Source: a virus | Lineage: Duplodnaviria; Caudoviricetes | IMG/VR virus record: IMGVR_UViG_3300033153_010015 | Span: 1-61,577 of that record | Length of the DNA: 61,577 bases | Direction: 5' to 3' (one strand) | Shown here: positions 1 to 61,577 of the stretch, piece after piece | How the letters are laid out: each line of letters opens with the position of its first letter | Position numbering within the stretch: the first letter of the stretch is position 1 | Notes under the pieces: generated by a model | The model's input: the letters and a program-made list of their open reading frames with translations, nothing else | Databases searched by the model: none | What the model was told of the DNA's origin: nothing | Made by a program: the position numbers and the translations under genes

Positions 1-114
1 TCGGCCTGCTTGGGCATGAGCCGGAACCCTTCAGCATACGCCTCTGCCAGTATATTCATCTGGCTGTATGCCTCGACCTCCTCCGGGGCGAGGGGGAGGC
101 AGATAGGCAGCTCC
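1..114. repeat. Terminal direct repeat, left copy (circular assembly overlap)
   Basis: 1-114 is identical to 61464-61577, and the helicase ORF reads through the join. Confidence 0.95.
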
Positions 115-227
115 AACACCCTCTTCACTTCGTCCGACTGCATCGATCCTTGCTGGATGGCGAAGGCGGGCTGCTGCGGGGGTGGAGGGGCTATTGCTAT
201 TCTTGGTACGGCGTCGAACAGGCTCAC
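1..227 (-). CDS. 5' part of the SF2 helicase (continues across the join into 61463..59588)
   Basis: The frame of MNILAE (ATG at 59 = 61522) stays open up to GTG at 227, giving MSLFDAVPRIAIAPPPPQQ...; GTGA overlaps the stop of the upstream gene. Confidence 0.8.
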   Translation of the reverse strand, partial: MSLFDAVPRIAIAPPPPQQPAFAIQQGSMQSDEVKRVLELPICLPLAPEEVEAYSQMNILAEAYAEGFRLMPKQA

Positions 228-382
228 TGGGCAAGTACCAGGTAGTGGCGGACAGCCCAGCATATTGCTCCAACGGCAATCGTGGTGACTACAGCACCTG
301 CAGCTATTACGATATAGATGCAGCCTACGCATCCATTGGCGCAGCCGTTCACTAATTTATCCTCTGCCTCGTTGCTGATCAT
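224..382 (-). CDS. Small membrane protein
   Basis: MISNEAEDK... with one hydrophobic helix; ATGA overlap with the upstream gene. Confidence 0.6.
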   Translation of the reverse strand: MISNEAEDKLVNGCANGCVGCIYIVIAAGAVVTTIAVGAICWAVRHYLVLAQ

Positions 383-717
383 TGGCTTTTCCCCTGAATA
401 ATGCCTTCGAGTTCTACGTTGGCCTTCTCGATAGCTGCGGCCGATCGGAGGCACAGATCCTTGAAGCTGCCCTTCTCGTGCTTGTTCTGATGTTTCCAGT
501 TGGCCTTGACGACCCGGGAGGCAGCCTGGAACGTCTTCTTGGTCATCTGATCCATGTAGAGGCTGTTCTCGAATCGTGGGCGGGCTGTTACGTCGCCTCC
601 CTCGTGATCCTTCGCGAGGGCCAGGAGGACTTGCCGGCGGGCTGACGCCTTGGCCAGGCGGGTGAAGAGTCTTTTGTCTGCTTTTTTCATGCTACCTCTG
701 GAAGTGTTTTCGGCCAA
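379..717 (-). CDS. Hypothetical protein (start may be MKKADK at ~690)
   Basis: ORF tiles tightly with its neighbours on the coding strand. Confidence 0.65.
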   Translation of the reverse strand: MAENTSRGSMKKADKRLFTRLAKASARRQVLLALAKDHEGGDVTARPRFENSLYMDQMTKKTFQAASRVVKANWKHQNKHEKGSFKDLCLRSAAAIEKANVELEGIIQGKSQ

Positions 718-1228
718 CGCCGCCGAAGGTTCGACTGTGGTGGCCCTTGGAGGGATGCTTCGGGACGGGGTGGTCGTGCGGGTCGCAGTAAGGCTCCCTG
801 TACTCGAGCGTCAAGCTCTTAAATGCGTCTGTGGAGATGGGTGCAGCCTCGTCTCGGATCATCTTCAAGACCTCCAGTCCTTGTTCCTCAGTGGTGCTTT
901 CAGGAAGCGTGTCGACAACCGCCACATCAATGCCTTTCAAAGATGCTTCGAGGTAGAGTCGATGGAAGGCTGAGCCCGACAGGTGAGGGTTTCCGCAGAT
1001 TAGAACTTTGATTCTCCCTGGGGGACGAACGGGCATTCCGATGCCTTTAACACCTTTAAGTCGCGACACGGCCTCTGTCGTGGCCTTTGCGGACGCCTCT
1101 ACACGACTCTTGGCCAATCGGCATTGGATTGCGTAGATATTCTTACCTGCACCTGCCTGTAGAAGCGCCTTCTGGCTGACTGTCAGCTCTAGGCCCATAT
1201 GTTTTTCTGCGAATTCTTCAGCGTCCAT
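692..1228 (-). CDS. Hypothetical protein
   Basis: 178-aa ORF with GGAGGGAG RBS upstream. Confidence 0.7.
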   Translation of the reverse strand: MDAEEFAEKHMGLELTVSQKALLQAGAGKNIYAIQCRLAKSRVEASAKATTEAVSRLKGVKGIGMPVRPPGRIKVLICGNPHLSGSAFHRLYLEASLKGIDVAVVDTLPESTTEEQGLEVLKMIRDEAAPISTDAFKSLTLEYREPYCDPHDHPVPKHPSKGHHSRTFGGVGRKHFQR

Positions 1229-1244
1229 AACTCCCTCCAGAGTT

Positions 1245-1403
1245 AAAAAGATTGGCGAGGATCGGTGCCTTCAGGATGGCGAATCACAAGGAGAGAAGGC
1301 ATTGAATGTTAAACTCTCATGACCATCTTGGTTGTGATAAGGAAGTCCTTTACCTATTGAGGCTGCTGCTCCTGCAGCTACGACTTCCTGTGATCCTCGC
1401 CAA
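1245..1403 (-). ncRNA. Candidate structured ncRNA with two potential pseudoknots
   Basis: 12-bp closing stem (1252-1263/1392-1403), internal 8-, 7- and 5-bp stems, two crossing pairings and a downstream U-tract; fills the whole intergenic space. Confidence 0.7.
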
Positions 1404-1408
1404 AGTGT

Positions 1409-3586
1409 TTACTTGGTGCCGACGACGACCAGATCGGCGTGGGGCATCAGCGACTCGATGAACGTGTTGTAGTCCGTCGCGCCTGTGCCGACCTGGATCG
1501 CTACGACCGCACCGCCGAGGATCTGCTCCACGACTGCCGGGGCGTAGGATACGATAGCATCCCGACGCTTGAACGGATCGAGGTGCATGAAGTGCTCAGC
1601 GCCGTAGTGTGCAGCGATTGCTGCCTTGGTGTTCTCGAACAGCACGAACGCGTCCTGAGGAGCCTTCTTGCCGGACCCTGCCATACCTTTATGGGGCATG
1701 CAGTTGATGAACAGGGTGATCCGATCCTTGGCCTTCTTATCGCCAACGCCGGTAGGCAGGGCCTCAGTGGCGGCTTGAGGTTCGACCGGAGCAGCTGCGA
1801 CCGGAGTAGTGGGAGCAGCAGGCTCGACAGGAGCGACGGGCTCGGCGGCGGCAGGGGCTACCGGCTCGGGGGTAACAACCGGAGTCTCGGTGTCCTCGAG
1901 GGATCCTTCGCAGATGCCTGCAGCTACAGCTTCGGGGCTGGTGGCACGAGCACTGGTCGGAGTCCAGACGATGCGGTTGCCCTCGACCTTGATCTCGTAG
2001 TCCTTGGACTCGATGTCCTGGGACTTCCGCTGACGCATGTCGCAGATGTGGCAAGGGCCGCCATTACTGTTAAAGCCCCGGATCTTGTTGGTTGTACATG
2101 CGGTACAGCCCTCGTTTGCCCAGGGAGCAGCACCGATCTGGACGATGGGTGCCGAAGGCGGTGCCGGGGCGGGTTCGGGAGTTGGTGCTGCGGCGGGTGC
2201 TGCGGCTACCGGCGATGCTGGAGAGGCGACTTCACCTCCTGCGAAAATGCCTGTAGTTGCGGGAGCTGCCGGCGCTTGAGCTACCGGAGACGCGGGAGCT
2301 GCGTTGCCCGTCTGCTCGCCCTTTGCTTTGTCGAAAATGCCCATACTGGTTCCTTGTTTTTCGTTGTGTTGTCCAATTTGCGGTATATTTAACTTATCCC
2401 TTTTACAGGATACTTCAAATCGCTTCTCAAAACTTTCCTCGTTGATTTTTCCGTCGCAGATATCCTGAAACTCACAACCCCGGTACTCATCGCATACCGT
2501 CTGGTTGCTGGGCTCCGGGATGTCGAAGGCCGACCGGGCGTTCTCCCGTATCCTGGCCATCTCAGCAATGGCCGGCATGATGCGGGTTACCCAAAAGTGG
2601 GCTACCTTGACGGCCGGTACCGATGCGGTTGCTTCGGTGACGCTGGGCTTTCCTTTGAGGTTGTTGTCACGGTCCCGGGGGATGATGAACTGGTTGTGAC
2701 GCAGCTCGATACTGTCTGGCCACTCGCTCTCCTCCTGCCCGAACAGCTTGACCATAAATGCGTACATGAGCATGGGGACGTCTTCGGCGAGGTCCTTGGA
2801 CTTCTTGAGCCACTTCTTGTCCTTGGTCGTCTTATGGTCTTCGATTCCGTGAGGAGAGGAATAGTCGACGTCGCCCCAGAAGTTGACGTTGATGTTCTTG
2901 GCGCCCGTGCCTTTACATGCAGCACATGGCCCTGCCGTGGGGATGGGGTGGTCTCCCGCGGAGTAGGTCTCGCCCTTGCCGGCGCATTCGCGGCACTTGA
3001 CCGATACTGTGGTGATCTGGCCGCGAAGCTCTACCTCTGCAACTCCACCGTGCTGCCGGCGGATGATGCCCTCGTCGACTGCTGCCTGGAAGACTGCGCG
3101 CAGGACCAACTGCTCCCCGGGGGAGAGGGGATCGGCTCCCTCGCTGCCGAACTTCTCTTCAGGCTGCTCCCAACCGTCGGGGAAGCAGTCGACCGGGAGG
3201 TTGGTCTTGACGTCCCGGCCGAGGCCGTCGGCGCTCAGGTGTCGTTCTGCTACGGAATGCAGGCAGGTGCCGAAGGCTTGAGACTTGTTCTGCTTGCCCC
3301 GGAGGCCTCGCACCTTACTGAGCCACCACCATCGGTGGCAGGACTTATTCTTGCCTGATCCGATGAATCTGCTCATTGCCGACGGGGAGACGGTGAAGGC
3401 GGTGCCGTCGAGGACTTTAAGGAGCCATTCGCGGCGGGGGAATAAGTCCTCCTCGGAATCGTTCTCGTTGTTGATCGTCGCGTAAGCGTGCTTGGTGCAA
3501 CACCAGATCAGATCGGGTGCCCCTTCGATGTAGGCTCCGCATCCTGCAGGAGCCGGTTTGCCGCAGTGGTAGCAGGTTCTACTCAT
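1409..3586 (-). CDS. PD-(D/E)XK (RecB/Cas4-like) exonuclease with a Zn-finger insert and a long Pro/Ala-rich C-terminal extension
   Basis: SPSAMSRF..CHRWWW, AFGTCLHSVAE, GDVD..IEDHKT and C..Y.GC.FQDIC motifs; CRECAGKG/CAACKGTG insert. Confidence 0.8.
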   Translation of the reverse strand: MSRTCYHCGKPAPAGCGAYIEGAPDLIWCCTKHAYATINNENDSEEDLFPRREWLLKVLDGTAFTVSPSAMSRFIGSGKNKSCHRWWWLSKVRGLRGKQNKSQAFGTCLHSVAERHLSADGLGRDVKTNLPVDCFPDGWEQPEEKFGSEGADPLSPGEQLVLRAVFQAAVDEGIIRRQHGGVAEVELRGQITTVSVKCRECAGKGETYSAGDHPIPTAGPCAACKGTGAKNINVNFWGDVDYSSPHGIEDHKTTKDKKWLKKSKDLAEDVPMLMYAFMVKLFGQEESEWPDSIELRHNQFIIPRDRDNNLKGKPSVTEATASVPAVKVAHFWVTRIMPAIAEMARIRENARSAFDIPEPSNQTVCDEYRGCEFQDICDGKINEESFEKRFEVSCKRDKLNIPQIGQHNEKQGTSMGIFDKAKGEQTGNAAPASPVAQAPAAPATTGIFAGGEVASPASPVAAAPAAAPTPEPAPAPPSAPIVQIGAAPWANEGCTACTTNKIRGFNSNGGPCHICDMRQRKSQDIESKDYEIKVEGNRIVWTPTSARATSPEAVAAGICEGSLEDTETPVVTPEPVAPAAAEPVAPVEPAAPTTPVAAAPVEPQAATEALPTGVGDKKAKDRITLFINCMPHKGMAGSGKKAPQDAFVLFENTKAAIAAHYGAEHFMHLDPFKRRDAIVSYAPAVVEQILGGAVVAIQVGTGATDYNTFIESLMPHADLVVVGTK
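2391..2418 (-). promoter_or_regulatory. Putative internal promoter within the exonuclease gene
   Basis: TTGAAG-N16-TAAGTT in an AT-rich patch, followed by AAGGA and an in-frame ATG at 2344. Confidence 0.5.
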
Positions 3587-3720
3587 CGATCTTCCTCCAG
3601 CCTCTTTAAGCGCCTTTCAAGGCCTGCGACTCGGAGTTTAGCGGCCCCGATGTCTGCATCCAGCATCAGGCCTATACCCAAAGGGATCACGAGTGACATC
3701 AATATAAATAGCCAGATCAT
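3583..3720 (-). CDS. Small membrane protein, 45 aa (not in the ORF track)
   Basis: MIWLFILMSLVIPLGIGLMLDADIGAAKLRVAGLERRLKRLEEDR; ATGA overlap with the exonuclease start. Confidence 0.6.
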   Translation of the reverse strand: MIWLFILMSLVIPLGIGLMLDADIGAAKLRVAGLERRLKRLEEDR

Positions 3721-3944
3721 TTACGGTCTTCCTCGCTTGATGTTTCCAGCTGCGCTGGCTTACGAATACCCGCCAGCATTTGAATGTACTGTTCCTGCTC
3801 TTCCTGCTTATCTTCCAGCTTCTTAACCTTGTCAGCAAGCTCCTGGTTGTTGCTGTTAAGGACCTTCTGGGCCTTCTTGATCAGGTGCTGCCCCGCGATG
3901 CTGATGAGCATGTACAGGAAGAATATGAGTTCAATGGGTGTCAT
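3717..3944 (-). CDS. Small membrane-anchored coiled-coil protein
   Basis: N-terminal hydrophobic segment followed by a heptad pattern. Confidence 0.6.
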   Translation of the reverse strand: MTPIELIFFLYMLISIAGQHLIKKAQKVLNSNNQELADKVKKLEDKQEEQEQYIQMLAGIRKPAQLETSSEEDRK

Positions 3945-4299
3945 TCCTGGCCTCCTGGTAATCTTCTGGACGGCAGTACGGGCAGGGGCACTGGTACCAC
4001 ACCACCCCTATCTTTTCCGTCCGAGGGTTGGTCTTTCCGTGTCCTGTGCCCCTACAGTACGGGCAATAGTGGTCCTCAGGTAGGACGTCCTGGACCTTGT
4101 GGACGATCTCGATGTTGCTCTGCTGGAGAGTTCTTGTAATCTCAGGATTGACTCCAAACCCGAGCTGCAGCACCTTGACGTTGTGTAGCCCGTGACAGTA
4201 TTCCGGACGGCTAAGGTATTTCCACCTGCCTCCAGACACGTCTTTAGATTGCATCACTCGGTGGGCGTGTTTATACGATTGCGCAATTACGAGGATCAT
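3931..4299 (-). CDS. Hypothetical protein with a C-terminal Zn finger
   Basis: GGAGGAG RBS and ATG at 4299; CPYCRGTG...CPCPYC. Confidence 0.65.
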   Translation of the reverse strand: MILVIAQSYKHAHRVMQSKDVSGGRWKYLSRPEYCHGLHNVKVLQLGFGVNPEITRTLQQSNIEIVHKVQDVLPEDHYCPYCRGTGHGKTNPRTEKIGVVWYQCPCPYCRPEDYQEARNDTH

Positions 4300-4472
4300 T
4301 TCTCCTCCTCCGGTATCCAGCACCTGAAGCAGCAGCCGCCGTTCTTGTGGCTGCCGTGGTACATGTTCCCGCACTTGGGGCACCGATGGCAGTACTCCTG
4401 AAGCTTCGGGCTTACTGGCCAATCGTGCTCGGTCCTGCGTTTACTGGTTCTCGCTACTTTCTGCATGCCCAT
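4296..4472 (-). CDS. Small Zn-finger protein, 58 aa (not in the ORF track)
   Basis: MGMQKVAR...CHRCPKCG...CCFRC; fills the gap after the primase gene. Confidence 0.55.
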   Translation of the reverse strand: MGMQKVARTSKRRTEHDWPVSPKLQEYCHRCPKCGNMYHGSHKNGGCCFRCWIPEEEK

Positions 4473-4474
4473 GT

Positions 4475-7081
4475 TTATTTTCCGTAGTTTTGGTGTTGCT
4501 CAATAAGCTTGCGAAGCTTCTTGCACTGATGCCCGTACCGCTCTGCTTCCTTCAGCAAGAGGTGCAGGTCGATCTGGTGCCAGAGGTGCTTGCCTTCATC
4601 TTCGTGCCCCGGCATGATCATAGGTACCGTCTTGCATGTGACCAGGTTGCAGAGGACTTTATCGATCGTCTTGATATTGAGTTTGAAGTTGGTCTTGTCG
4701 GCGAACCTGCAGTGGTACAGATTGTCGATGGCCGTGGTCAGTACCCATACGCCATTGCTGCCAATGAACACGCCGCGGTCGACGTTGCTGGGATTCTCGA
4801 TCATGGCGATCAGGCACTCGACTACCGGGGTGGTGTGCCCTGAGGTGAGCATTCGGTGCATGAGGTCGGTGTGCCCTGCCACGTTGCCCTGCATGACGAA
4901 GCGGTTGTCCTTCTGGTATCGATGGCGATTGTGGTACAGGTACATGAAGTGCTGGGCCACGATATAGTCGCTCACGCCCGTTCCGTCGCCGCGTACCCAC
5001 CTGTTGCCTTTCTTGGCGGTGTATTCCCGCCCTCCGAGGCTCTGGAGGTAGTCGCCAGCCTCGTTGGTGTTCTCAAAGTGGTACAATCTATCGGCGATTG
5101 CCCGCCGGTCTTCAGGAGAGAGATCCTTATTGCCCGCCAGCTCCTGGACCATCTCATCGTTGTTGGCGGTGAGGAGGATCCTGACAGGATTATTTATTTG
5201 CATGAGAGGCTTATGCTTCTCGTCGACCGTAATGGTATCCCCTCCTGTGAGCTCCCGGAAGACTCCGCTGATCTCTCTGTCCTTCTTGGCAGGCCAGCTT
5301 TCGTTGACCAGCAGGAAGGGGCTCTTCAGCAGGCCTGACTGGTACTGCCCTACGATGTCCCGGGCCGACGCAAGGAACGGCTCCTGAAGGCATTCAACGA
5401 GCCCCTCAACGAGCATCTTCTTGCCTACCCCTGGAGGTCCGACGATAGACATGGCGCACATTGGCCCGTCTTCGAAGCTGAGGGAGTAGGAGATCCACTT
5501 GCACAGAGCCGAGTAGTGCTCCCCTCCGAGCAGCTGGAGCCAGGTGTCGACCTCCTGGTTGAATACCGGCTGGACGTTCTCGCTTCTGCGGTACGCTGGC
5601 AGGACCAGGACGGCGTGGTCGGTGTTGGCGTCCTTGATGTACCCTCCCCGGATCTGGGGGACTCTGCGGATCTCTCCTACCAAAGTGGCGTGGTCGTTGA
5701 TGATCTGGGTGGGGCTCTTCTGCCGGCGGTCCCCGTCTTTGGTATAGATGTAAGGGTCAATGACGTCGGCCATGCCGGATGTGAGGATTCGGGGAATGAG
5801 GCTGTTGGCCTGCAGGAACATCTTCTCGTAGGTACCCTCGCCGGTCATCAGGCAGTAATAGGATCCGAAGCAGGCGATAGCGTGGCGCTTGATGAGGTCG
5901 TCCCTCTGTCCTTCAGGGTAGGCGGACAGATCAACCCCGGTCCACTCCTTCATGCCACTGGCCATGGCTGCCAACTTGTCGCCTGCCTCCAGCTGAGTCT
6001 CTTCGGTCTTCACGGCCTGGAGCTCCACCTTCTGGGACTCGACCTCCCACATGCGGGTGATCATGCTCCAGAGGATCTCCATCCAATCCTGATCGGGATC
6101 CAGCTCGGCTGCAGCGTCCTGGAAGATGGCGAAGATGTGCTCTGGAGTGGTATCCTGGTGGCCGTAGAGCATGCTTACCGCCTCTCCCACGTACTGCAGC
6201 ATGGTCGTATCGCGGTCGCCCGGTAGGGCCATGATGGTGTGGTTGAAGATGATGTCGAAGCATGTCCGGCCGCGGAGCCTTTTCTTGGCCCACTTATACC
6301 ACTCGGTCTGGACGGTGCGATTGTTGGAGAAGCATTCGATGAGGCACTTAGCCGTATGGTAGTCGGGGGAGTTGCCTGCGTAGGTCTTGGGAGCCGTGGC
6401 CACGTTGCCAGCCTTGATGGCTGCAGCCTCCAGCGAGTTCTCGGATACCGGCGAAAGCTGAGACAGGCTGAGGACCTCCTCCTGCCATTCAATCATAAAC
6501 CAGGGATCGTCTGACGATGCGGCTCCGTCGCGGACTACTCGAGGTGCCCGGAACAGTCTGTTCCACTCGGACGCCTTAGTATCCGGGTCGAGGCCTTGGC
6601 GTTGGAGCTCCATGTGCAGGCCCCTGATGTAGTCCTCAGTCTGCAAGGCCCTCGTCGGCTGGTCAAACATGTAGACGAGCCTGGCGCCGTGCTTGGTGGT
6701 GTAGTGGCAGGACCACTGGGCGGCTGCTCCCTGGAGGTTGGCCACCTGCTCCATCCAAGCGTAGAACAGCTCTTCGGTCATCGGTGCGTGGCCGGCGTTG
6801 TCGAAGTCGACGGCGAAGAAGTGGCAAAGGGGCGGGTGCCCTGCGGCCTCCAAAGGAAGGAGCGCCGACTTATTGATCCGAGGCCAGGAAGCTTCCCCGG
6901 CCACGTGATAGCAGCAGAAGTGGGCGTCCTGCGGGTAGTCGCTCTCAAGCACCTCCCTCAAAGTGCCGGTTATCATCGTTTTGACTTGGTTGACGTCTTC
7001 TATCCGGGAGATCCCCGGAATTGCCTTGTGAGGCAATACCCCTACCAGGAAGCTATTCATGATCCTATCCGCCTGCTGCAC
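4475..7081 (-). CDS. Primase-helicase (AEP-type primase plus P-loop NTPase of D5/DUF5906 type)
   Basis: FFAVDFD, YTTKHGARL and RLFRAP primase-like motifs; Walker A GPPGVGK, LLVNES, ILLTAN; AGGAGG RBS before GTG at 7081. Confidence 0.8.
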   Translation of the reverse strand: MQQADRIMNSFLVGVLPHKAIPGISRIEDVNQVKTMITGTLREVLESDYPQDAHFCCYHVAGEASWPRINKSALLPLEAAGHPPLCHFFAVDFDNAGHAPMTEELFYAWMEQVANLQGAAAQWSCHYTTKHGARLVYMFDQPTRALQTEDYIRGLHMELQRQGLDPDTKASEWNRLFRAPRVVRDGAASSDDPWFMIEWQEEVLSLSQLSPVSENSLEAAAIKAGNVATAPKTYAGNSPDYHTAKCLIECFSNNRTVQTEWYKWAKKRLRGRTCFDIIFNHTIMALPGDRDTTMLQYVGEAVSMLYGHQDTTPEHIFAIFQDAAAELDPDQDWMEILWSMITRMWEVESQKVELQAVKTEETQLEAGDKLAAMASGMKEWTGVDLSAYPEGQRDDLIKRHAIACFGSYYCLMTGEGTYEKMFLQANSLIPRILTSGMADVIDPYIYTKDGDRRQKSPTQIINDHATLVGEIRRVPQIRGGYIKDANTDHAVLVLPAYRRSENVQPVFNQEVDTWLQLLGGEHYSALCKWISYSLSFEDGPMCAMSIVGPPGVGKKMLVEGLVECLQEPFLASARDIVGQYQSGLLKSPFLLVNESWPAKKDREISGVFRELTGGDTITVDEKHKPLMQINNPVRILLTANNDEMVQELAGNKDLSPEDRRAIADRLYHFENTNEAGDYLQSLGGREYTAKKGNRWVRGDGTGVSDYIVAQHFMYLYHNRHRYQKDNRFVMQGNVAGHTDLMHRMLTSGHTTPVVECLIAMIENPSNVDRGVFIGSNGVWVLTTAIDNLYHCRFADKTNFKLNIKTIDKVLCNLVTCKTVPMIMPGHEDEGKHLWHQIDLHLLLKEAERYGHQCKKLRKLIEQHQNYGK

Positions 7082-7092
7082 TGCCGCTCCTC

Positions 7093-7329
7093 CTAATTCA
7101 TCACTGCCTCGTACGGAGTCAAGATGCTTTGTAATTGATTTTTGTAGTTGCGCCACGCTCCCAGCACCCTCTCGGCCTGGATATCGTCGTCCAACTTGAG
7201 CATGAGCCCTCGGCAGTGGACCACGTAATCGTCCTGAGGTTTCATGTAGAACACGCGCACCACGTTGGCAAGGTCGATGTACTGCCAAGAGCCGTCCTTG
7301 TATTCAACCCTGAACAGAGGCTCTTGCAT
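7093..7329 (-). CDS. Hypothetical protein
   Basis: Tiled ORF with TAATG coupling. Confidence 0.6.
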   Translation of the reverse strand: MQEPLFRVEYKDGSWQYIDLANVVRVFYMKPQDDYVVHCRGLMLKLDDDIQAERVLGAWRNYKNQLQSILTPYEAVMN

Positions 7330-7544
7330 TACTCTGCCTCAACCTCAAGAACCCTCAGTAGGGTGCGACTCAACGCCATAGTCAGGCAGAGTGCGGTCAG
7401 ATCATCGTCGGCGAGGATAGACATCACCACCCCCTCCGATGCGTAGGCTGCCCGCCTCAACTGCTTCTGGACGTCCGAGGGGAGGAGGCTCAGTGCGGTC
7501 TCCTGGTCGGCTATTTGGGCCTTGACGTCTTCGAGTTCGGTCAT
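7329..7544 (-). CDS. Hypothetical protein
   Basis: GGAGG RBS; tiled ORF. Confidence 0.65.
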   Translation of the reverse strand: MTELEDVKAQIADQETALSLLPSDVQKQLRRAAYASEGVVMSILADDDLTALCLTMALSRTLLRVLEVEAE

Positions 7545-7912
7545 ACCTCCTCCGTCGGCAGGTACTGGTCCAAGTGCGAGGCTGCAGCTTCCAGCTCTTC
7601 GAGGACTTCCTCAGGCAGGTTAACGGACTGCAAGCGGGTGAGTCGGCCTTTTAGCGCCGAGATGGCGCACGTTCGCCGAATGAACAGCTGTTGCTCCTCG
7701 ATCGCCATATCCCCCGGGACTCGCAGGAGGGTGAACCCGTAGGCTTTATTGCCCTCCCTGGTGGCCTTGGTGATGTAGCTGAGGATCGACCGCTCTTCGG
7801 CGGGTGCGACGTCGTTGTTGTACATTTCCCGAGCCACGAGGCTGAGTGATGGGTAGAGTTCCGCACCGCCCGAGGTCGGGTCAACGACAATAATCTGGGT
7901 ACTTCTTTTCAT
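7541..7912 (-). CDS. Putative DNA-binding protein (NUMOD1-like HTH)
   Basis: LYPSLSLVAREM...ITKATREGNKAYGFTL resembles NUMOD1. Confidence 0.45.
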   Translation of the reverse strand: MKRSTQIIVVDPTSGGAELYPSLSLVAREMYNNDVAPAEERSILSYITKATREGNKAYGFTLLRVPGDMAIEEQQLFIRRTCAISALKGRLTRLQSVNLPEEVLEELEAAASHLDQYLPTEEV

Positions 7913-7949
7913 GGGTGTATGCTCCGTATCGTATCGTATCGAGGAAGTC

Positions 7950-7977
7950 ACTGTAACTTGGATAATTGATTTTTCAA
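7950..7977 (-). promoter_or_regulatory. Putative sigma70-type promoter for the primase operon
   Basis: TTGAAA-N16-TACAGT in an intergenic AT-rich gap. Confidence 0.55.
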
Positions 7978-7991
7978 GACTATCAGCGTTT

Positions 7992-8225
7992 TTAAGGCAC
8001 CATCAAGGCGATAGGCCAGAGGAGGAAGGAGCCCCACCGAAGCTTGGCAGCAGTCCGAAAGACCCCGTCGATCTGATCCTGCGTGGCGTCCTTCGGCAGC
8101 TCCTTGATCTTCTCCTTGAGCCAATACTGGATCTTGTGGTCGGTCTTGGACCAGACCCAGGCCCCCACCATCACCCAGGGGATGATGAAGTTGATGACTC
8201 CTGTATCGGCGATGAACTTAATCAT
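7992..8225 (-). CDS. Small membrane protein
   Basis: Two hydrophobic segments. Confidence 0.6.
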   Translation of the reverse strand: MIKFIADTGVINFIIPWVMVGAWVWSKTDHKIQYWLKEKIKELPKDATQDQIDGVFRTAAKLRWGSFLLWPIALMVP

Positions 8226-16568: not shown

Positions 16569-16623
16569 TCTGCTTGCTCCTGATTCGAGTTGCGGTTAAG
16601 CCAGTGTGGCCTGTTCATACCCC

Positions 16624-16652
16624 ACTATACAGGCACCTTTTGTATCTGTCAA
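16624..16652 (-). promoter_or_regulatory. Strong sigma70 early promoter
   Basis: TTGACA-N17-TATAGT with an AT-rich upstream region. Confidence 0.85.
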
Positions 16653-16802
16653 CGTGTTTAGTGTAATTAATTGTATCTCTTATCAAAAGCACCCTGAAAG
16701 CGCTCTCGCCGAATAGTCTCCCCCTATATAGACTATAGAGGATATGTATCTATTGCTCTGGGATACCTAATCCGTATGGTGAGACTGAAAGGTAGATTTC
16801 TG

Positions 16803-16848
16803 TATTTTTTATACATTTAATCGGATAATACTATATGTATAAAAAATA
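16803..16848. repeat. Perfect 14-bp inverted repeat
   Basis: TATTTTTTATACAT (16803-16816) / ATGTATAAAAAATA (16835-16848). Confidence 0.85.
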
Positions 16849-16858
16849 TTTGTTATAT

Positions 16859-17060
16859 TGCTCTCAGGTAGTGAATTTGTATGCTGAGACTGCTCTCAGT
16901 GGAAAAATGGGAATCGCTCCAAAAGAGTTTGGCCGAGAAACACGAAAGTTTATCGGACCCTGTGGAAGAATACATATTTTAATAATTTATATAGAGTCTC
17001 TCTTATATAATCTAATCTAACATGGTTTTAACAAAAGTGGAAATTCACTACCTGAGAGCA
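16859..17060. repeat. Perfect 20-bp inverted repeat with a 162-bp spacer
   Basis: TGCTCTCAGGTAGTGAATTT (16859-16878) / AAATTCACTACCTGAGAGCA (17041-17060). Confidence 0.9.
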
Positions 17061-17550
17061 CTTGCCCTCCGACGGCATATCTCCGCCGTATGGCCACCAT
17101 CCTGAAGTGCGCGGGATACGCCGACTCAAATAGCTAAGTGCCTGGTAATGAACCACTTAGAGTTATACATATCATATATTATGCGACGTTAGGGAATCCG
17201 TAGGCAATAGACTTGATCAAGACCTAGGTGTGGGATCACTCATAGTAGCACGATGCGTGCCAGGAGGGAGGCATAGCATGAACCGTGCCAGAGAAACCGC
17301 TACGTGGAGCAAAGGAGTCAAGAGGGGTGGGAGCCTCCACAGAATATACCCAACTTTCCACAACAATACTTTTTATATTATCAAGATTCAGCACAATACT
17401 ATTTGTTCCCCGATCCCGCCGTACAGGCAATTACGGTATTCGAAATACTTATCATACTTATAGTACCTCTACCAATAATACCAGATCCCCAAATACCTTT
17501 CATACTTTTAGTTACTTTAAAGAAATACCATAAACTTATACAGAGCACCC

Positions 17551-25074: not shown

Positions 25075-25682
25075 TGAAGTCGGTTGACATTCAGGCAAAT
25101 ACGTATAGAGTAGTGACCACACGTACCCGTATCGTAGCCGCCCTTTTAGGGGCGGCCTTTCTATTTGGGTGTAAAGAGGTCTCATTACCAGATATCTCCG
25201 GAGACAGCTTCAAGTTGCCTCCTAAGGTGCGCGCCTTTCCTGCACCGCCAGCAGAAGATCCGAAATACCCGAGGTACGACCCGTACCAGCCCCTGTACCA
25301 GGGAAACAGGTTCTGGAGGGACCGGAAGAGTGCCCCTCCGACAAAGAAAATCGACTGGAGGGAGCAGCACAAGATCGAGCTCAGCAACCTGGGGTTCGAT
25401 ATGCTCAAGTGGGGAGCCGTCGGGGCCGTCTTAGGCATAGCCTTCTGCCTTTCAGTTCAGAACGAATTAGCGGACGCTGCAGGGGCCTTCGTGGCCGCGG
25501 CAGGACTCATATCGATCGGCTTCGGTATGGGCTTCCTGTGGATCACGGAAATCTGGCAGTGGATGGTCTACGCGGCGACAGCAGGTGCAACCATCTGGCT
25601 GGTCATGAGATTCCGAGGCAGGGGACTGAAGTTTCGAAAGCCGAAACCTTCTTGCAAAATACCCCCTGAACCTGTAGAGTAA
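25071..25682 (+). CDS. Lipoprotein with C-terminal transmembrane helices (possible unimolecular spanin / lysis protein)
   Basis: Lipobox LFGC after a hydrophobic stretch; three C-terminal hydrophobic helices. Confidence 0.5.
   Translation: MMKSVDIQANTYRVVTTRTRIVAALLGAAFLFGCKEVSLPDISGDSFKLPPKVRAFPAPPAEDPKYPRYDPYQPLYQGNRFWRDRKSAPPTKKIDWREQHKIELSNLGFDMLKWGAVGAVLGIAFCLSVQNELADAAGAFVAAAGLISIGFGMGFLWITEIWQWMVYAATAGATIWLVMRFRGRGLKFRKPKPSCKIPPEPVE
25652..25680 (+). promoter_or_regulatory. Putative promoter for the tail-tip operon
   Basis: TTGCAA-N17-TAGAGT. Confidence 0.55.
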
Positions 25683-40800: not shown

Positions 40801-41956
40801 ACTGGATAGTACCCTGCAGGATGGACCGGATTTCTTCCGCCAGCTGATTCTGGGGCAAGCCGATAGCTGTGGCTGCCTGACTGATGCGGACTGTGAACTC
40901 TCTGACCTGGTCGGCCGACAGTCCGGCGCCGAGGCCCGGAGCAATGGCGGTCTGGTAAGCCTGGACCAAATCGTCGAAGGTGGCAGCCGTCTTGAGGGCC
41001 TCCCGTCGGAGCTGGACGGTCTGGGCAACTGCGATCTTCTGGGCAGCGGCAAGGGCTTCAGCACCCTGCACCATCTCACCTTGGGCGTTGACGACGAAGC
41101 CTGCAGCAAGGAATAGGCTGGCGATACCCAACTTGGCTTGCTCCAGTTGGGCATTGAATGTCACCATACTCGTGACGAGGTTCTTGAACAGTTCGAGGAT
41201 CTTGCGACTGACCGCAAAGAACGCCAGAGCGGTGAAGAGTCGGAGGAAAGAGCTTTGAACTCGGTTGACCATACTGTTGAGGCCTTTCATGGTCCGAGTC
41301 AGGGCTGAGGCCCTCTTGCTGGTGTTGTCGATCTTCTTTGGGGCATCCTGCTCGAGCAATCCAAGACCCTGCGCCCGAGACCGGGAGATGCCGAGGTCGC
41401 TCAAGGCCTGCGCGTTGCCGGCAAGGCCCTTCTCCCTGGCAAAGGCAGCCAATGCCGCAAACTTCGCCTGCTTCTCCTGGAAGGATGCAATCTGCTTGTC
41501 GATGGTGAGCTGACGGGTGGCCGTGCGGAGGGAGCTGTTCTCCAGCTTGGCCCGTTGGACCTTGACTGCCTGGATGCTGCGTTCAACGGCCAGCTCGCGT
41601 TTGAGCTTGTTGAGAGACGGGTTCTTGAGGAGGGCCAACTGCCGTTCGGAGTTGACGAGCTGCTGCTGCCTGGCGAGCCGGGTCTTCTGCGTCTGGAGCG
41701 TCTTGCTGTTGAGCAAGGCCTGCTGCTTCTGGATCTGCAGTCGGGCCTTCTGCAAGTCGGTCAACTTCTTAGCGTTGGTCTGCGCCTTTTTGGAGGCAGT
41801 CCCAGAGGCGGCACGTCCACCGCCGGCCTGCAGCTTTTGAACTTCCTTCATCTCTTTCTTTATGTCATCTAGTGACTTCTTGAAGATGGTGAGGTTGTCA
41901 AAGCCTTTAGCCTTTACGGTGATCGGATAATCTATGCCGCCTCTGTCGACTGTCAT
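37889..41956 (-). CDS. Tail tape measure protein
   Basis: 1355 aa, helical and Ala/Leu-rich; C-terminal GFAKGG..DTVPAWLRPGEYVV. Confidence 0.92.
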   Translation of the reverse strand: MTVDRGGIDYPITVKAKGFDNLTIFKKSLDDIKKEMKEVQKLQAGGGRAASGTASKKAQTNAKKLTDLQKARLQIQKQQALLNSKTLQTQKTRLARQQQLVNSERQLALLKNPSLNKLKRELAVERSIQAVKVQRAKLENSSLRTATRQLTIDKQIASFQEKQAKFAALAAFAREKGLAGNAQALSDLGISRSRAQGLGLLEQDAPKKIDNTSKRASALTRTMKGLNSMVNRVQSSFLRLFTALAFFAVSRKILELFKNLVTSMVTFNAQLEQAKLGIASLFLAAGFVVNAQGEMVQGAEALAAAQKIAVAQTVQLRREALKTAATFDDLVQAYQTAIAPGLGAGLSADQVREFTVRISQAATAIGLPQNQLAEEIRSILQGTIQSRTTRIATSLGITNEDIANAKEAGRLFDFLQEQFGAFKVAGEEALNTFGALFTNLKDALLLVAGEAGLGFFESIKDVLRDLRDELVVIDKLTGAISPTPESLAAFRNLGDTLTGIVADFRNAFLGDNLGIITGALDLASSTLEVISGILIGILDTVKIIGIAIRPITELLRLFGANSKALGRVLGLLIGAAVALKLVPWGLVIAGLTALSGKAASAAVGFKILVGSLAGMAIPIAAVVAALAVMLITLGKVKDSFSDIEKEIGGDASFLETIQVVAITMGAVLDKLLIRISSFAGTVKLRFEQAFIAIQSLATETVLAIVNIISDAITDIIDSLLKKFPALGTILGIKEGDVKDTLKVLTDGLRDAADTAVKGLARVDKALLRVQKNLKKNLDAVDTSASARILALQTAGGRNAGKQGAGTKAGSAAALKTFLESATGAVVGKPNLDFDALAKGFTKSLDKASKELDLAKLNLPPQTLQVRKVQLQESLKLLDAQKKVQQEILSLESASLERQKRIAIEREKLNKSTKELVDDLVEVGPDSKAAERVLADTQLSNAAKQEAAKLAGEIVQAGNQEIAGQLRKNALLEAGTDLERDSNNLTNLRLLKLGEEFRIKSEIAKKDAEIAASKTRLETQRAAGGISREDFDVKAVGLEKESSEIRIAELERLAAASEDKSLEQQKYNAELDAELAKLEAINVQLEKAKVIAEGGAEAVIMGLSEGWNQFINDLPNGFEVALTGIQTVLNQVASAISDTLTRALDPSQGSIKDRWKKFFLDLSNTVLNTILKSFINDFLKEIFAAEAKASAGKAAGSFIKSVLGFAKGGYVQGFAEGGTVNSHPPLANKDPRDTVPAWLRPGEYVVRPEIVRKLGVGFFEGINSGIVNPLLGLDGLSGLRKSSARRAKTMSFATGGAVPAGGFAPAEPTILPVMIADENTMEQLINNGQSAFRKGIQDNQDAIAISGPRADRGGRF

Positions 41957-41968
41957 CGTGATTGCTCC

Positions 41969-52585: not shown

Positions 52586-53145
52586 TGGCCATCAAGAAGT
52601 TCCCAACACGGAGGGTCGTTCAAGGGCTTGCCAAGTTGGGAGCTCTTGAGGCGAAGAAGTATTCCGTCCCGAGGATCGAATCAACAACCCTCGCAGACAA
52701 CGTCAAGGTGGAGCATCGCCGCACAGGGCCTACCAAGTCGACGTACGCGGCCCACATCCCCCACTACTGGGCCGTATTCCGCAACGATGGAACCAAGGCC
52801 AAGAAGCTGCCGAAAGGGAAGTGGTTCGCGATCTTCCCCAACCCTCTGGACGATCCTCGGCACAGAGGCCGGTACCCGAAGCGCCTGGCCAACCGGAGGA
52901 AACTGACTCTGACGCGGAAGCGCATCAAGAGGCTGAAGAAGCAGGGGAAGATGTACTTCACGAATCGGATAAGCGCGGCAGAGGGTGATCACTTCTTCGA
53001 CAACGGCCCGGGGGGCAAGATGGCCCTCTTCGCTCCTGTAGGGGCTGCGGCCATCCTGAAGCAGTTCCGGGGCGACGTACTCGAATTCCTCGGGGACGAC
53101 TTCAAGATCGATGAGTATGGGATTACCCTGAACCTCGGTCTGTAG
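52585..53145 (+). CDS. Putative neck / tail completion protein (HK97 gp10-like)
   Basis: Basic; AKKY.VP..L..N, HYWAVF.NDGT. Confidence 0.5.
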   Translation: MAIKKFPTRRVVQGLAKLGALEAKKYSVPRIESTTLADNVKVEHRRTGPTKSTYAAHIPHYWAVFRNDGTKAKKLPKGKWFAIFPNPLDDPRHRGRYPKRLANRRKLTLTRKRIKRLKKQGKMYFTNRISAAEGDHFFDNGPGGKMALFAPVGAAAILKQFRGDVLEFLGDDFKIDEYGITLNLGL

Positions 53146-59587: not shown

Positions 59588-61577
59588 TTATCCTATTCCG
59601 AACTTTTCTCGGAAAAGCTTACGCATCGTAGGATCGAGCGTTTCTACGTTCTCAATCTTCTCTCTGAGAACTTCCGACGGGAAGATCTTAGGGATAGGAT
59701 CGTAGTTGCCGATGATGAGCCGGTTGGGGGCCGTGGTGGTCTGGTGAATGTATAGGGCATCATTCAGGGTGGATGCAAAGATCATGTCGTCCCACGGGGA
59801 GCTGTTGGCGGTATTGGCGATGACGACGTCAGCTTTTTGACCTTTACGGTGCAGACGACCCAATACTTGCTCGGCCATGTTGGCAGATCTGGGCCACTGG
59901 AGGAACCACTGATGCTGGAAGTGTTGCAGGTTCTTTCCTTGGCCGTGCGCACGCATGCTGGCCACGATGATCCGCTTCTTATTGGCATGGTCGATTATCC
60001 TCGAGTTGTGGACTCCGCCGGCAGGGCAGTACATAACAGGCAGCCCTGCCTTCTTCAGGACCTCGTTCATCCACAGGCCCATTTCGATATGAAAGACCCA
60101 GATGATTCCGCCCTCGCCTTTGGCAGCAATCGTCTTGGCCCACTTCAGAGCCTGGTCGACCTTGAACGAGCACAACCTTACCGCGCGCTTGTGACGTCCA
60201 AACATGTCGGTCTTCGGCGGGTTGACCATCAGCATCAGCTCGGGGAAGACGGAGTCGTTCTTGGCGGCCCACTTCTCGTAAAGGTGGTAGCCGACGTCCC
60301 GGTCTCCGTGGTGATACATATTGCCTCCAACCAGTGCTGGAGTGTCGAGACCTGGCTGGTGCTTGTCGGCGAACCATCCACGCAGAGTCCTGTGGTACTC
60401 CTGCGTCTTATCGAGGTGGTTCATGGCCTGCTGGAGGTAGGACTCCGCGGCCGACTCCGGGCACTGTAAGTCCTTGGCTACGGTCTCGACGGGGGGCCAG
60501 ACTACTTCGGTGTAGAATCCGGCGCCGTAGATCTGGTACTGCCACTTCCATTTCATCATCGGATGCTCGAGCTCGTCACCGTTGGGTGTGACCATCATGT
60601 CTTCCACCTGGCTGCCCAGCTCCTGCACCCGGTCGTAGCCTGCATAGGCGGCCATCTCTCCAGCGCTCATACGATTGTTCTTTAAGAGCAGGCTCGAGTC
60701 GACGTTGAGCTGGCCGTCGGAGCATACGACTCCGGGGGTAGTGGAGAGCCGGTAGGCAAACGCTCGGCGGAAGCCCGCCACTCCAGGCGGCATTCGTTCG
60801 CGGAGGTTCTTCTGAGCCCAGCTGATCAGCGGAGTAAGTGCGCCGGGGTTCCACTGGGAGGTATCGACGTCGTCCTTGGTAACGTCGGCATCGAGGAGGG
60901 CCGACCACTCTTGAACCATGGATAGTGGGCGGGGAAGGAAAGAGTCTTTCTTGAGAGAGTGCTTCACCAGGAAGAAATAGTCCAGGATGCTCTTGCGAGT
61001 CATCGTACCGCTCATGGGTACGAACTCCGGCTGGTACTCCTCGATGTATCCCTGCAGGCGTTTGGCACGGGCAGAATCCCGGCCGGAAATGGCGTGGGCC
61101 TCGTCGAAGACGATGATCTCAGGCTTGATCAGGTTGAGGAGCTCGACGGCATCCTTGGTGCTGAGGTAGGAATCAGATAGGATGTAGAGCCCGGGGCGAC
61201 CGCGCTTGGCCACTGCCATACGCTCTTTCTTGGGTCTGCCGGCGAGCAGGTGCATCGGGTAGGATATGGGGACGCGCTTGCGCCAGTAAGGCACGTCGTT
61301 CTGCCAGAGCTGGGCGATCATGGAAGAGGGGACAATGAGCATCATCTTCCGGAGGCCCTTGCGGTAGGCCTTCTCCGGGATCATGAGGCTGATGCCTGTC
61401 TTGCCTCCGCCGACGCCAATCGGGAGGAACGGCCCGGAGAACATCTCGTAGGCCATCACGGCCTCGGCCTGCTTGGGCATGAGCCGGAACCCTTCAGCAT
61501 ACGCCTCTGCCAGTATATTCATCTGGCTGTATGCCTCGACCTCCTCCGGGGCGAGGGGGAGGCAGATAGGCAGCTCC
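59588..61577 (-). CDS. SF2 (SNF2/DEAH-like) helicase; true start at 227 across the join (~700 aa)
   Basis: GVGGGKT, IVPSS, FDEAH, MSGT, G.G.NLQ and EQVLGRLHRKGQ. Confidence 0.92.
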   Translation of the reverse strand, partial: ELPICLPLAPEEVEAYSQMNILAEAYAEGFRLMPKQAEAVMAYEMFSGPFLPIGVGGGKTGISLMIPEKAYRKGLRKMMLIVPSSMIAQLWQNDVPYWRKRVPISYPMHLLAGRPKKERMAVAKRGRPGLYILSDSYLSTKDAVELLNLIKPEIIVFDEAHAISGRDSARAKRLQGYIEEYQPEFVPMSGTMTRKSILDYFFLVKHSLKKDSFLPRPLSMVQEWSALLDADVTKDDVDTSQWNPGALTPLISWAQKNLRERMPPGVAGFRRAFAYRLSTTPGVVCSDGQLNVDSSLLLKNNRMSAGEMAAYAGYDRVQELGSQVEDMMVTPNGDELEHPMMKWKWQYQIYGAGFYTEVVWPPVETVAKDLQCPESAAESYLQQAMNHLDKTQEYHRTLRGWFADKHQPGLDTPALVGGNMYHHGDRDVGYHLYEKWAAKNDSVFPELMLMVNPPKTDMFGRHKRAVRLCSFKVDQALKWAKTIAAKGEGGIIWVFHIEMGLWMNEVLKKAGLPVMYCPAGGVHNSRIIDHANKKRIIVASMRAHGQGKNLQHFQHQWFLQWPRSANMAEQVLGRLHRKGQKADVVIANTANSSPWDDMIFASTLNDALYIHQTTTAPNRLIIGNYDPIPKIFPSEVLREKIENVETLDPTMRKLFREKFGIG
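61464..61577. repeat. Terminal direct repeat, right copy
   Basis: Identical to 1-114. Confidence 0.95.

Follow-up and report, generated by a model that had tools for sequence, protein, structure and literature searches.

A strongly folded RNA three-way junction, possibly a branched intrinsic terminator, downstream of an exonuclease-like gene in an uncultured phage

In the genome of an uncultured phage, the 180-nt gap (1229-1408, minus strand) between the stop codon of an exonuclease-like gene and the ATG of the next gene, ORF178, holds a structured element (1245-1403) that we model as a three-way junction with two arms, P2 and P3, and a closing helix, P1. The element fills the gap from the stop codon (1411-1409) to the ribosome-binding site of ORF178 (1238-1231). 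We take its structure as real, and it is an orphan, that is, a well-supported structure for which no recurrence was found in the loci searched. As to its function, we tentatively read it as a branched intrinsic terminator, attenuator, or 3′-end structure. We favor this reading because P1 runs into a UCUUUUU tract, is preceded by an A-rich stretch (UAAACAC), and begins 6 nt past the stop codon.

The window, by which we mean the whole stretch of DNA analyzed here, corresponds to one complete virus record of IMG/VR, 61,577 bp long. It is recognizable as a tailed phage from PHROG matches to primase, DNA polymerase, helicase, large terminase, and tail proteins. A blastn search of positions 1-6000 against the GenBank phages gave no match, and tblastn with the helicase found one record only among these phages, at 25% identity. 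An exact 114-bp repeat is present at both ends of the record (1-114 and 61464-61577), and the helicase start codon (61522) lies within it, at the equivalent of position 59 of the left copy (CAT on the plus strand). The record may be a circularly closed assembly whose ends need not be physical termini; its ends cut the helicase gene and may be assembly breakpoints rather than true termini. The closeness of the element to the genome end is therefore not evidence. All the genes neighboring the element are on the minus strand, in a long co-directional block. The features discussed below are the following.

1409..3586, minus strand: upstream gene, coding for a 725-aa RecB-family (PD-(D/E)XK) exonuclease-like protein (ORF, PHROG, PF12705 homologs)
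1403-1392, minus strand: P1 5′ strand, UUGGCGAGGAUC, 6 nt past the stop codon (inverted repeat, MFE)
1389-1382 / 1347-1340, minus strand: arm 1, P2, AGGAAGUC/GACUUCCU, 8 bp (MFE)
1338-1332 / 1289-1283, minus strand: arm 2, P3, AUCACAA/UUGUGAU, 7 bp (MFE)
1264..1282, minus strand: J3/1 linker, UCGCCAUCCUGAAGGCACC, 19 nt, complementary to GAUGG and UGCCUUC of the P3 interior
1263-1252, minus strand: P1 3′ strand, GAUCCUCGCCAA, forming 12 Watson-Crick pairs with the P1 5′ strand
1245..1251, minus strand: U-rich tract UCUUUUU, directly after P1 (sequence)
1231..1238, minus strand: ribosome-binding site GGAGGGAG of ORF178 (sequence), unpaired in the MFE fold
692..1228, minus strand: downstream gene ORF178, a 178-aa ORF of unknown function with coding-like codon statistics

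The exonuclease-like gene ends with TAA at 1411-1409. Its PHROG exonuclease matches are weak, and PF12705 (RecB-family exonuclease) is found in nine of ten homologs of the 725-aa protein. The protein is 72% identical to P0002, with the C-terminus aligned through to the end, and 52% identical to P0003, which is truncated; its other homologs share at most 32% identity. A Cys-rich stretch at the N-terminus, internal CxxC pairs, and long Ala/Pro-rich linkers are seen in it, together with a C-terminal domain of ~120 aa that is conserved but has no family assignment, and this layout is common to P0002 and P0004. On the other side of the element, ORF178 starts with an ATG at 1228 and has one distant homolog among 1.84 billion representatives, P0013 (131 aa, E 5e-12), with which it shares a C-terminal block that is conserved. 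ORF178 matched no family of Pfam, PHROG, or PADLOC, its ESM Atlas leads (terminase-N or P-loop-like) scored at most 0.90, under the bar of the tool, and a scan with the ORF178-P0013 alignment found no relative. Neither ORF178 nor its neighbor ORF112 had a tblastn match in any of the 54 related loci described below.

The core of the element is simple. P1 has a duplex energy of -21.3 kcal/mol and eight G-C pairs among its twelve, and the inverted repeat behind it extends to 20-nt arms that are 85% complementary, with 128 nt between the P1 arms. P1 and P2 are only 2 nt apart and stackable into ~20 bp. P2 closes two small hairpins, GCUGC-AGGA-GCAGC and GCCU-CAAU-AGGU, the MFE fold taking the other register of the GCAGCAGC run at the first of them. 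The interior of P3 (42 nt) pairs ambiguously, either as GAGAG/CUCUC or as the helices of the MFE fold. There are no G-U pairs in the core helices, which are all Watson-Crick. The sequence-only reading from which this work started had listed P1, P2 with its hairpin, P3, GAGAG/CUCUC, two crossing pairings, and the UCUUUUU tract, and all of them are present on the minus strand where it had placed them. Its 12-bp closing stem is found as 12 Watson-Crick pairs (1403-1392 / 1263-1252), and its impression that most of the gap is paired agrees with the MFE fold, in which pairing covers 68% of the 152 nt spanned by P1.

Separately, we observed that the 8-mer GATCCTCG, a sequence with a GATC site that makes up the inner end of each P1 arm, occurs 13 times on both strands of the genome against 3.6 expected, and none of 100 shuffles reached 13. 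A second inverted repeat with a CGAGGATC core (52663-52866) proved not to be structured (z -0.64). A 19-codon upstream ORF inside the element and a 51-aa ORF on the plus strand were set aside, as they show no coding signal.

The folding energy of the element is far from that of random sequence. The RNA MFE of 1240-1408 (minus strand) is -62.3 kcal/mol, in a fold that contains P1, P2, and P3, as compared with -38.5 ± 3.6 kcal/mol for 200 dinucleotide shuffles (z -6.63, none of the 200 as good); the sequence-only reading had named this comparison as one that could undo it. The helices listed in that reading, taken alone, give -45.6 kcal/mol. Pair probabilities stay between 0.93 and 0.98 with 0 to 150 nt of flank added on each side (P1 0.94-0.96, P2 0.98, P3 0.93). 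Among the 23 intergenic gaps of the genome, no other is strongly structured (z -5.8 here, on the minus strand; next best -2.7). Over 130 evenly spaced 170-nt windows, z has a mean of -0.39 and a standard deviation of 1.25, and the minimum of -5.94 is at 1240-1409 (minus strand), followed by -3.48. A weaker control, in which the MFE of ~2050 sliding 170-nt windows per strand was regressed on GC, placed 1231-1400 (minus strand) 2.56 sd under the line and 14th on its strand, in a frame from which part of P1 was missing. By our estimate, a genome of this size should have about one perfect 12-bp inverted repeat within 250 nt (61577 x 250 x 4^-12 = 0.9), and the weight of the evidence therefore lies on three perfect nested helices that fit the gap exactly.

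One coding window found among those best by GC residual, 41791-41960, has a similar z (-5.7 on the plus strand, -5.3 on the minus strand). It is rod-like, with an 11-bp perfect closing stem (41803-41813 / 41935-41945), and makes up the first ~165 nt, from the ATG (41956), of a 1355-aa gene on the minus strand. This structure may mask the start region or serve as a processing site.

The fold by itself does not say in which molecule it acts. The plus strand folds about equally well (-63.5 kcal/mol, z -4.55), and the minus strand folded as DNA has a z of -6.29. As the core helices are all Watson-Crick, the folding energy decides neither the strand nor between RNA and DNA, and we prefer the minus strand solely because the neighboring genes are on it and because the U-run is 3′ of P1 there.

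The proposal of two pseudoknots fared less well than that of the helices. The complementarities are there (GAUGG/CCAUC and UGCCUUC/GAAGGCA), and when only J3/1 and the P3 interior are considered, 6 of 5000 shuffles reach the same 7+5 bp. When any of three region pairs is allowed, 107 of 3000 shuffles do so, and the support above chance becomes marginal. Forcing the 7-bp J3/1 helix gives a nested fold that replaces P3, at -59.5 kcal/mol, 2.8 above the MFE. The J3/1 pairings are thus possible and weakly supported, and they may be alternatives to P3 instead of pseudoknots.

No known RNA family accounts for the element. The 4227 models of Rfam 15 gave no match at gathering score over the whole window and, with permissive filters, none at E<=10 over 1100-1560. 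The latter search had no match at E<=10 to hammerhead, twister, twister-sister, pistol, hatchet, or HDV-like ribozymes, models of which are part of Rfam. ARAGORN found no tRNA or tmRNA gene in the window, and no Rfam tRNA model matched there. The type III toxin-antitoxin RNA array is defined by tandem antitoxin repeats upstream of the toxin gene; no tandem repeat is found in 1229-1408, so the gap does not qualify as such an array. The sequence-only reading, which had suggested a novel ribozyme, riboswitch, or noncoding RNA motif, was right that no known family matches and that the fold is strong, but we found nothing specific for a ribozyme or a riboswitch. Nor can the element be called a motif yet, because no recurrence was found.

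The search for recurrence was centered on the exonuclease gene, whose relatives led us to 54 related loci (20 viral and 34 metagenomic, some duplicated between collections), none of them above 39% identity; the P0002 and P0003 contigs are not included. Viral contigs scanned with one protein at a time (ORF178, the exonuclease, or the DNA polymerase) gave no relatives. R1, a covariance model built from the single sequence of the element, recovered only the window itself from 52 sources (478 kb), the other two matches listed being at chance level (E=1 and E=9.7), and had no match in 20 related viral records searched whole. When the filters were removed for the nine closest loci, the three R1 matches displayed as alignments were plain hairpins that fit P1 and the tail only. 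Searches of 1200-1440 by blastn and six-frame tblastn against the fetched related loci returned nothing significant, and no further copy of the element is found in its own genome. Stretches with a pattern of the two P1 arms (10+10 nt) come from many phyla and number 15 in viruses and at least 120 in genomes. Of these, 95 loci were fetched (15 viral, 80 genome); R1 matched none of them at E<=1, and we therefore regard these stretches as chance inverted repeats. Two pattern scans of viral contigs with the interior of the element gave no matches. A miniature inverted-repeat mobile element was considered and rejected, the element being single copy and the 95 loci with the same arms having no match to the interior.

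In 41 of the 54 related loci, the exonuclease gene is followed by the helicase gene, and most of the loci have primase matches ahead of the exonuclease gene. Between the exonuclease stop and the helicase start there are -175 to 2034 nt in the relatives, a spread that marks this slot as insertion-prone. In our phage, the slot is ~1.35 kb long and contains the element, ORF178, ORF112, and the end repeat of the record, so that a lineage-specific cassette, bordered upstream by the element, lies within a conserved replication module. We folded the first 180 nt or less past the exonuclease stop in the 28 relatives with a gap of at least 73 nt, and six are strongly structured there (z <= -3.2; L002, L007, L019, L020, L024, L043). 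Four of these have simple strong hairpins, L002 with a U-run as well as L007, L020, and L043, and most of the hairpins that follow the exonuclease gene in relatives have no U-tract. The structured stretch of L019 may be coding. In L024, the closest accessible relative (exonuclease 34% and helicase 45% identical), an 8-bp closing stem around two arms directly follows the exonuclease gene (6972-7100, z -4.2 to -5.7).

No homology between the L024 structure and our element was detected in either direction: R1, even with filters off, had no match inside it, and R2, the model built from the L024 structure, did not match the element or any other fetched locus. The Rfam models found only two tRNA-Arg genes in 13 related loci. 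These tRNA-Arg(tct) genes are near the helicase gene in L007 (8797-8873) and L004 (10354-10427), and the one in L007 is within the exonuclease-helicase slot, just before the helicase start.

If the element is a terminator, it would be transcribed and act in cis, as an RNA structure in the 3′ untranslated spacer that follows the exonuclease gene. P2 and P3 would fold during transcription and bring the two P1 strands together. As the 3′ strand of P1 emerged, P1 would form against the U-tract, and the long leftward transcript of the replication genes would be stopped or attenuated, with the compact structure remaining as a nuclease-resistant 3′ end. The conserved primase and exonuclease genes would thereby be insulated from the lineage-specific ORF178/ORF112 cassette in the variable slot ahead of the helicase gene. 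In this account the structure, its statistical strength, its position, the U-tract, and the variable slot are observed, and the transcription of the element, termination by P1, and any stabilizing effect are inferred. The U-run had been an afterthought in the sequence-only reading, whereas the GC-rich stem with UCUUUUU, directly after a stop codon, is the only feature with a ready mechanistic reading.

Several observations bear on this terminator reading. P1 is a GC-rich stem, and its U-rich tract (UCUUUUU) comes within the 0-2 nt expected of intrinsic terminators, but 128 nt separate the arms where our terminator scan allows loops of 3-8 nt, and the scan does not list the element. Canonical terminators of hairpin and U-tract are found elsewhere in the genome (42944-42913, minus strand; 25137-25156, plus strand). 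The leftward gene block is headed by a sigma-70-like promoter with 11 of 12 consensus positions (16652-16624, minus strand), and only one weak minus-strand terminator-like site (15714-15700) is listed in the ~16.5 kb from this promoter to the element. Strong structures are found at the same place in 6 of 28 relatives, the element is a clear outlier in its own genome, and the best filters-off matches of R1 in relatives are plain hairpins fitting only P1 and the tail. On the other hand, the extra helices and the J3/1 complementarity are needless for termination; most hairpins of the relatives and the L024 structure, which is not detectably homologous, lack a U-tract; and the plus strand and the DNA fold equally well. 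In addition, terminator-like sites are not above shuffles in this genome (6 vs 7.0, 18 vs 17.1, 18 vs 15.0, and 7 vs 10.5). No promoter was found near the element within 1-8000, and a full stop would consequently leave ORF178, ORF112, and the helicase gene without a recognized promoter.

The promoter at 16652-16624 is part of an AT-rich divergent control region (16569-17303, GC 0.31-0.49), which is probably an operator or early-promoter region. It also contains a 20-bp perfect inverted repeat (16859-16878 / 17041-17060), the arms of which are 162 nt apart, and a pair of 17-nt near-palindromes at 16803-16848.

Other roles for a transcribed structure seem less probable to us. It is rather improbable that the element is a sensor RNA, riboswitch-like or protein-binding, in which the junction and J3/1 would form a pocket and binding would stabilize the terminator stem P1 and stop read-through into ORF178. 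In favor of a sensor are the architecture, in which P1 closes a junction of several helices and the 19-nt joining strand could pair with two stretches of the P3 interior (6/5000 shuffles), a nearly isoenergetic fold that replaces P3 (-59.5 vs -62.3 kcal/mol), no matching Rfam family, and a gene with a free ribosome-binding site immediately downstream. Yet P1 is stable without any ligand (-21 kcal/mol, pair probability 0.94-0.96), which leaves little room for switching, ORF178 has no metabolic or transport annotation that would point to a ligand, and the J3/1 complementarity is marginal after correction for the choice of regions (107/3000 shuffles). No homologs were found in the searched loci, hence no conserved pocket or covariation. 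We also rate as quite unlikely a processing or stabilizing site for RNase III or RNase E, at which cleavage would separate the exonuclease and ORF178 mRNAs and leave protective hairpins. The intergenic position in a long co-directional gene block would suit such a site, as would the 2-nt spacing of P1 (12 bp) and P2 (8 bp) and the presence of a second long-stem structure, with its 11-bp closing helix, at the 5′ end of the 1355-aa gene; the analogous L024 structure, having no U-tract, fits processing better than termination. It would leave the U-tract of our element unexplained, however, and the branched shape is unlike that of the irregular single hairpins of phage T7. A free-standing small RNA of ~150-160 nt, released from the 3′ UTR or made from its own promoter, or a self-cleaving ribozyme of a new class, is most improbable. 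The fold is compact, with paired ends and a terminator-like 3′ end, and no known family matches, but no promoter-like site is listed upstream on the minus strand, no ribozyme model matches at E<=10, and neither a homolog in anything searched nor a second copy in the genome was found.

The element could also act as DNA or have no role. A DNA-level element, with the nested inverted repeats acting in double- or single-stranded DNA as, for example, a protein-binding site, a site at which the phage primase starts or primes on single strands, or a recombination or insertion scar at the border of the variable slot, is in our view very unlikely. It would agree with core helices that are purely Watson-Crick and fold equally on both strands, with the z of -6.29 under DNA parameters, and with a location that borders an insertion-prone slot of the replication module. 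Nevertheless, the U-tract and the way in which the element exactly fills the intergenic gap point to RNA, no target-site duplication is evident, the element has a single copy in the genome, and the 95 loci sharing its arms have no match to its interior at E<=1; the record ends being perhaps assembly breakpoints, the closeness to the genome end adds nothing here. That the structure has no selected function and is a by-product, accidental or relic, of recombination in a variable region appears unlikely. It is a singleton without a homolog, a perfect 12-bp inverted repeat within 250 nt should occur about once in a genome of this size, the 8-mer GATCCTCG that is part of P1 is over-represented genome-wide (13 vs 3.6 expected), and the GC-regression control is unimpressive. 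Against this, three independent perfect helices (12, 8, and 7 bp) are nested exactly within the gap, none of the other 22 of 23 gaps is structured, z is -5.9 to -6.6 with none of 200 shuffles as good, and the element lies far below the next of 130 genome windows.

What the element would teach depends on which reading holds. If P1 terminates transcription, it would document an intrinsic terminator built on a large pre-folded junction, a form that standard finders miss by design, and would indicate how accessory genes that have entered the replication module of a phage are kept insulated. Should the interior be a sensor or a catalyst, the element would represent a new RNA class. We consider it rather doubtful that it is the first member of a new class of phage regulatory RNA, a junction sensor with P1 as its terminator stem, or a small ribozyme of a new class. 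In such a sensor, a ligand or a phage protein would fix the junction through contacts between J3/1 and P3 and so decide read-through into the accessory cassette. At present, the value of this single sequence from an uncultured phage is that of a lead for experiment, not a result.

The element can be compared with several known systems and with its nearest counterpart. The L024 structure has the same position after a homologous exonuclease gene and a closing stem with two arms, but it has no U-tract, a J3/1 of only 1 nt, and arms of other sizes. One class of riboswitch aptamers is built on a three-way junction closed by P1. The element is similar to these in that its P1 closes a two-arm junction, its joining strand has potential tertiary or alternative pairing, and it is upstream of a gene. 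It differs in having no match to an Rfam riboswitch at E<=10 and in that its P1 would itself be the terminator stem, with no separate expression platform to compete with. Phage T7 early mRNA has intergenic RNase III sites that are irregular single hairpins. These share with the element a stable intergenic structure between co-directional phage genes, here with ~20 bp of stackable P1 and P2, whereas the element is branched. Finally, the element resembles intrinsic (Rho-independent) terminators and attenuators in its GC-rich stem, U-rich tract, upstream A-rich stretch, and position just past a stop codon. In contrast to these, its stem closes a two-arm junction of 128 nt in place of a loop of 3-8 nt, which is why a consensus scan misses it.
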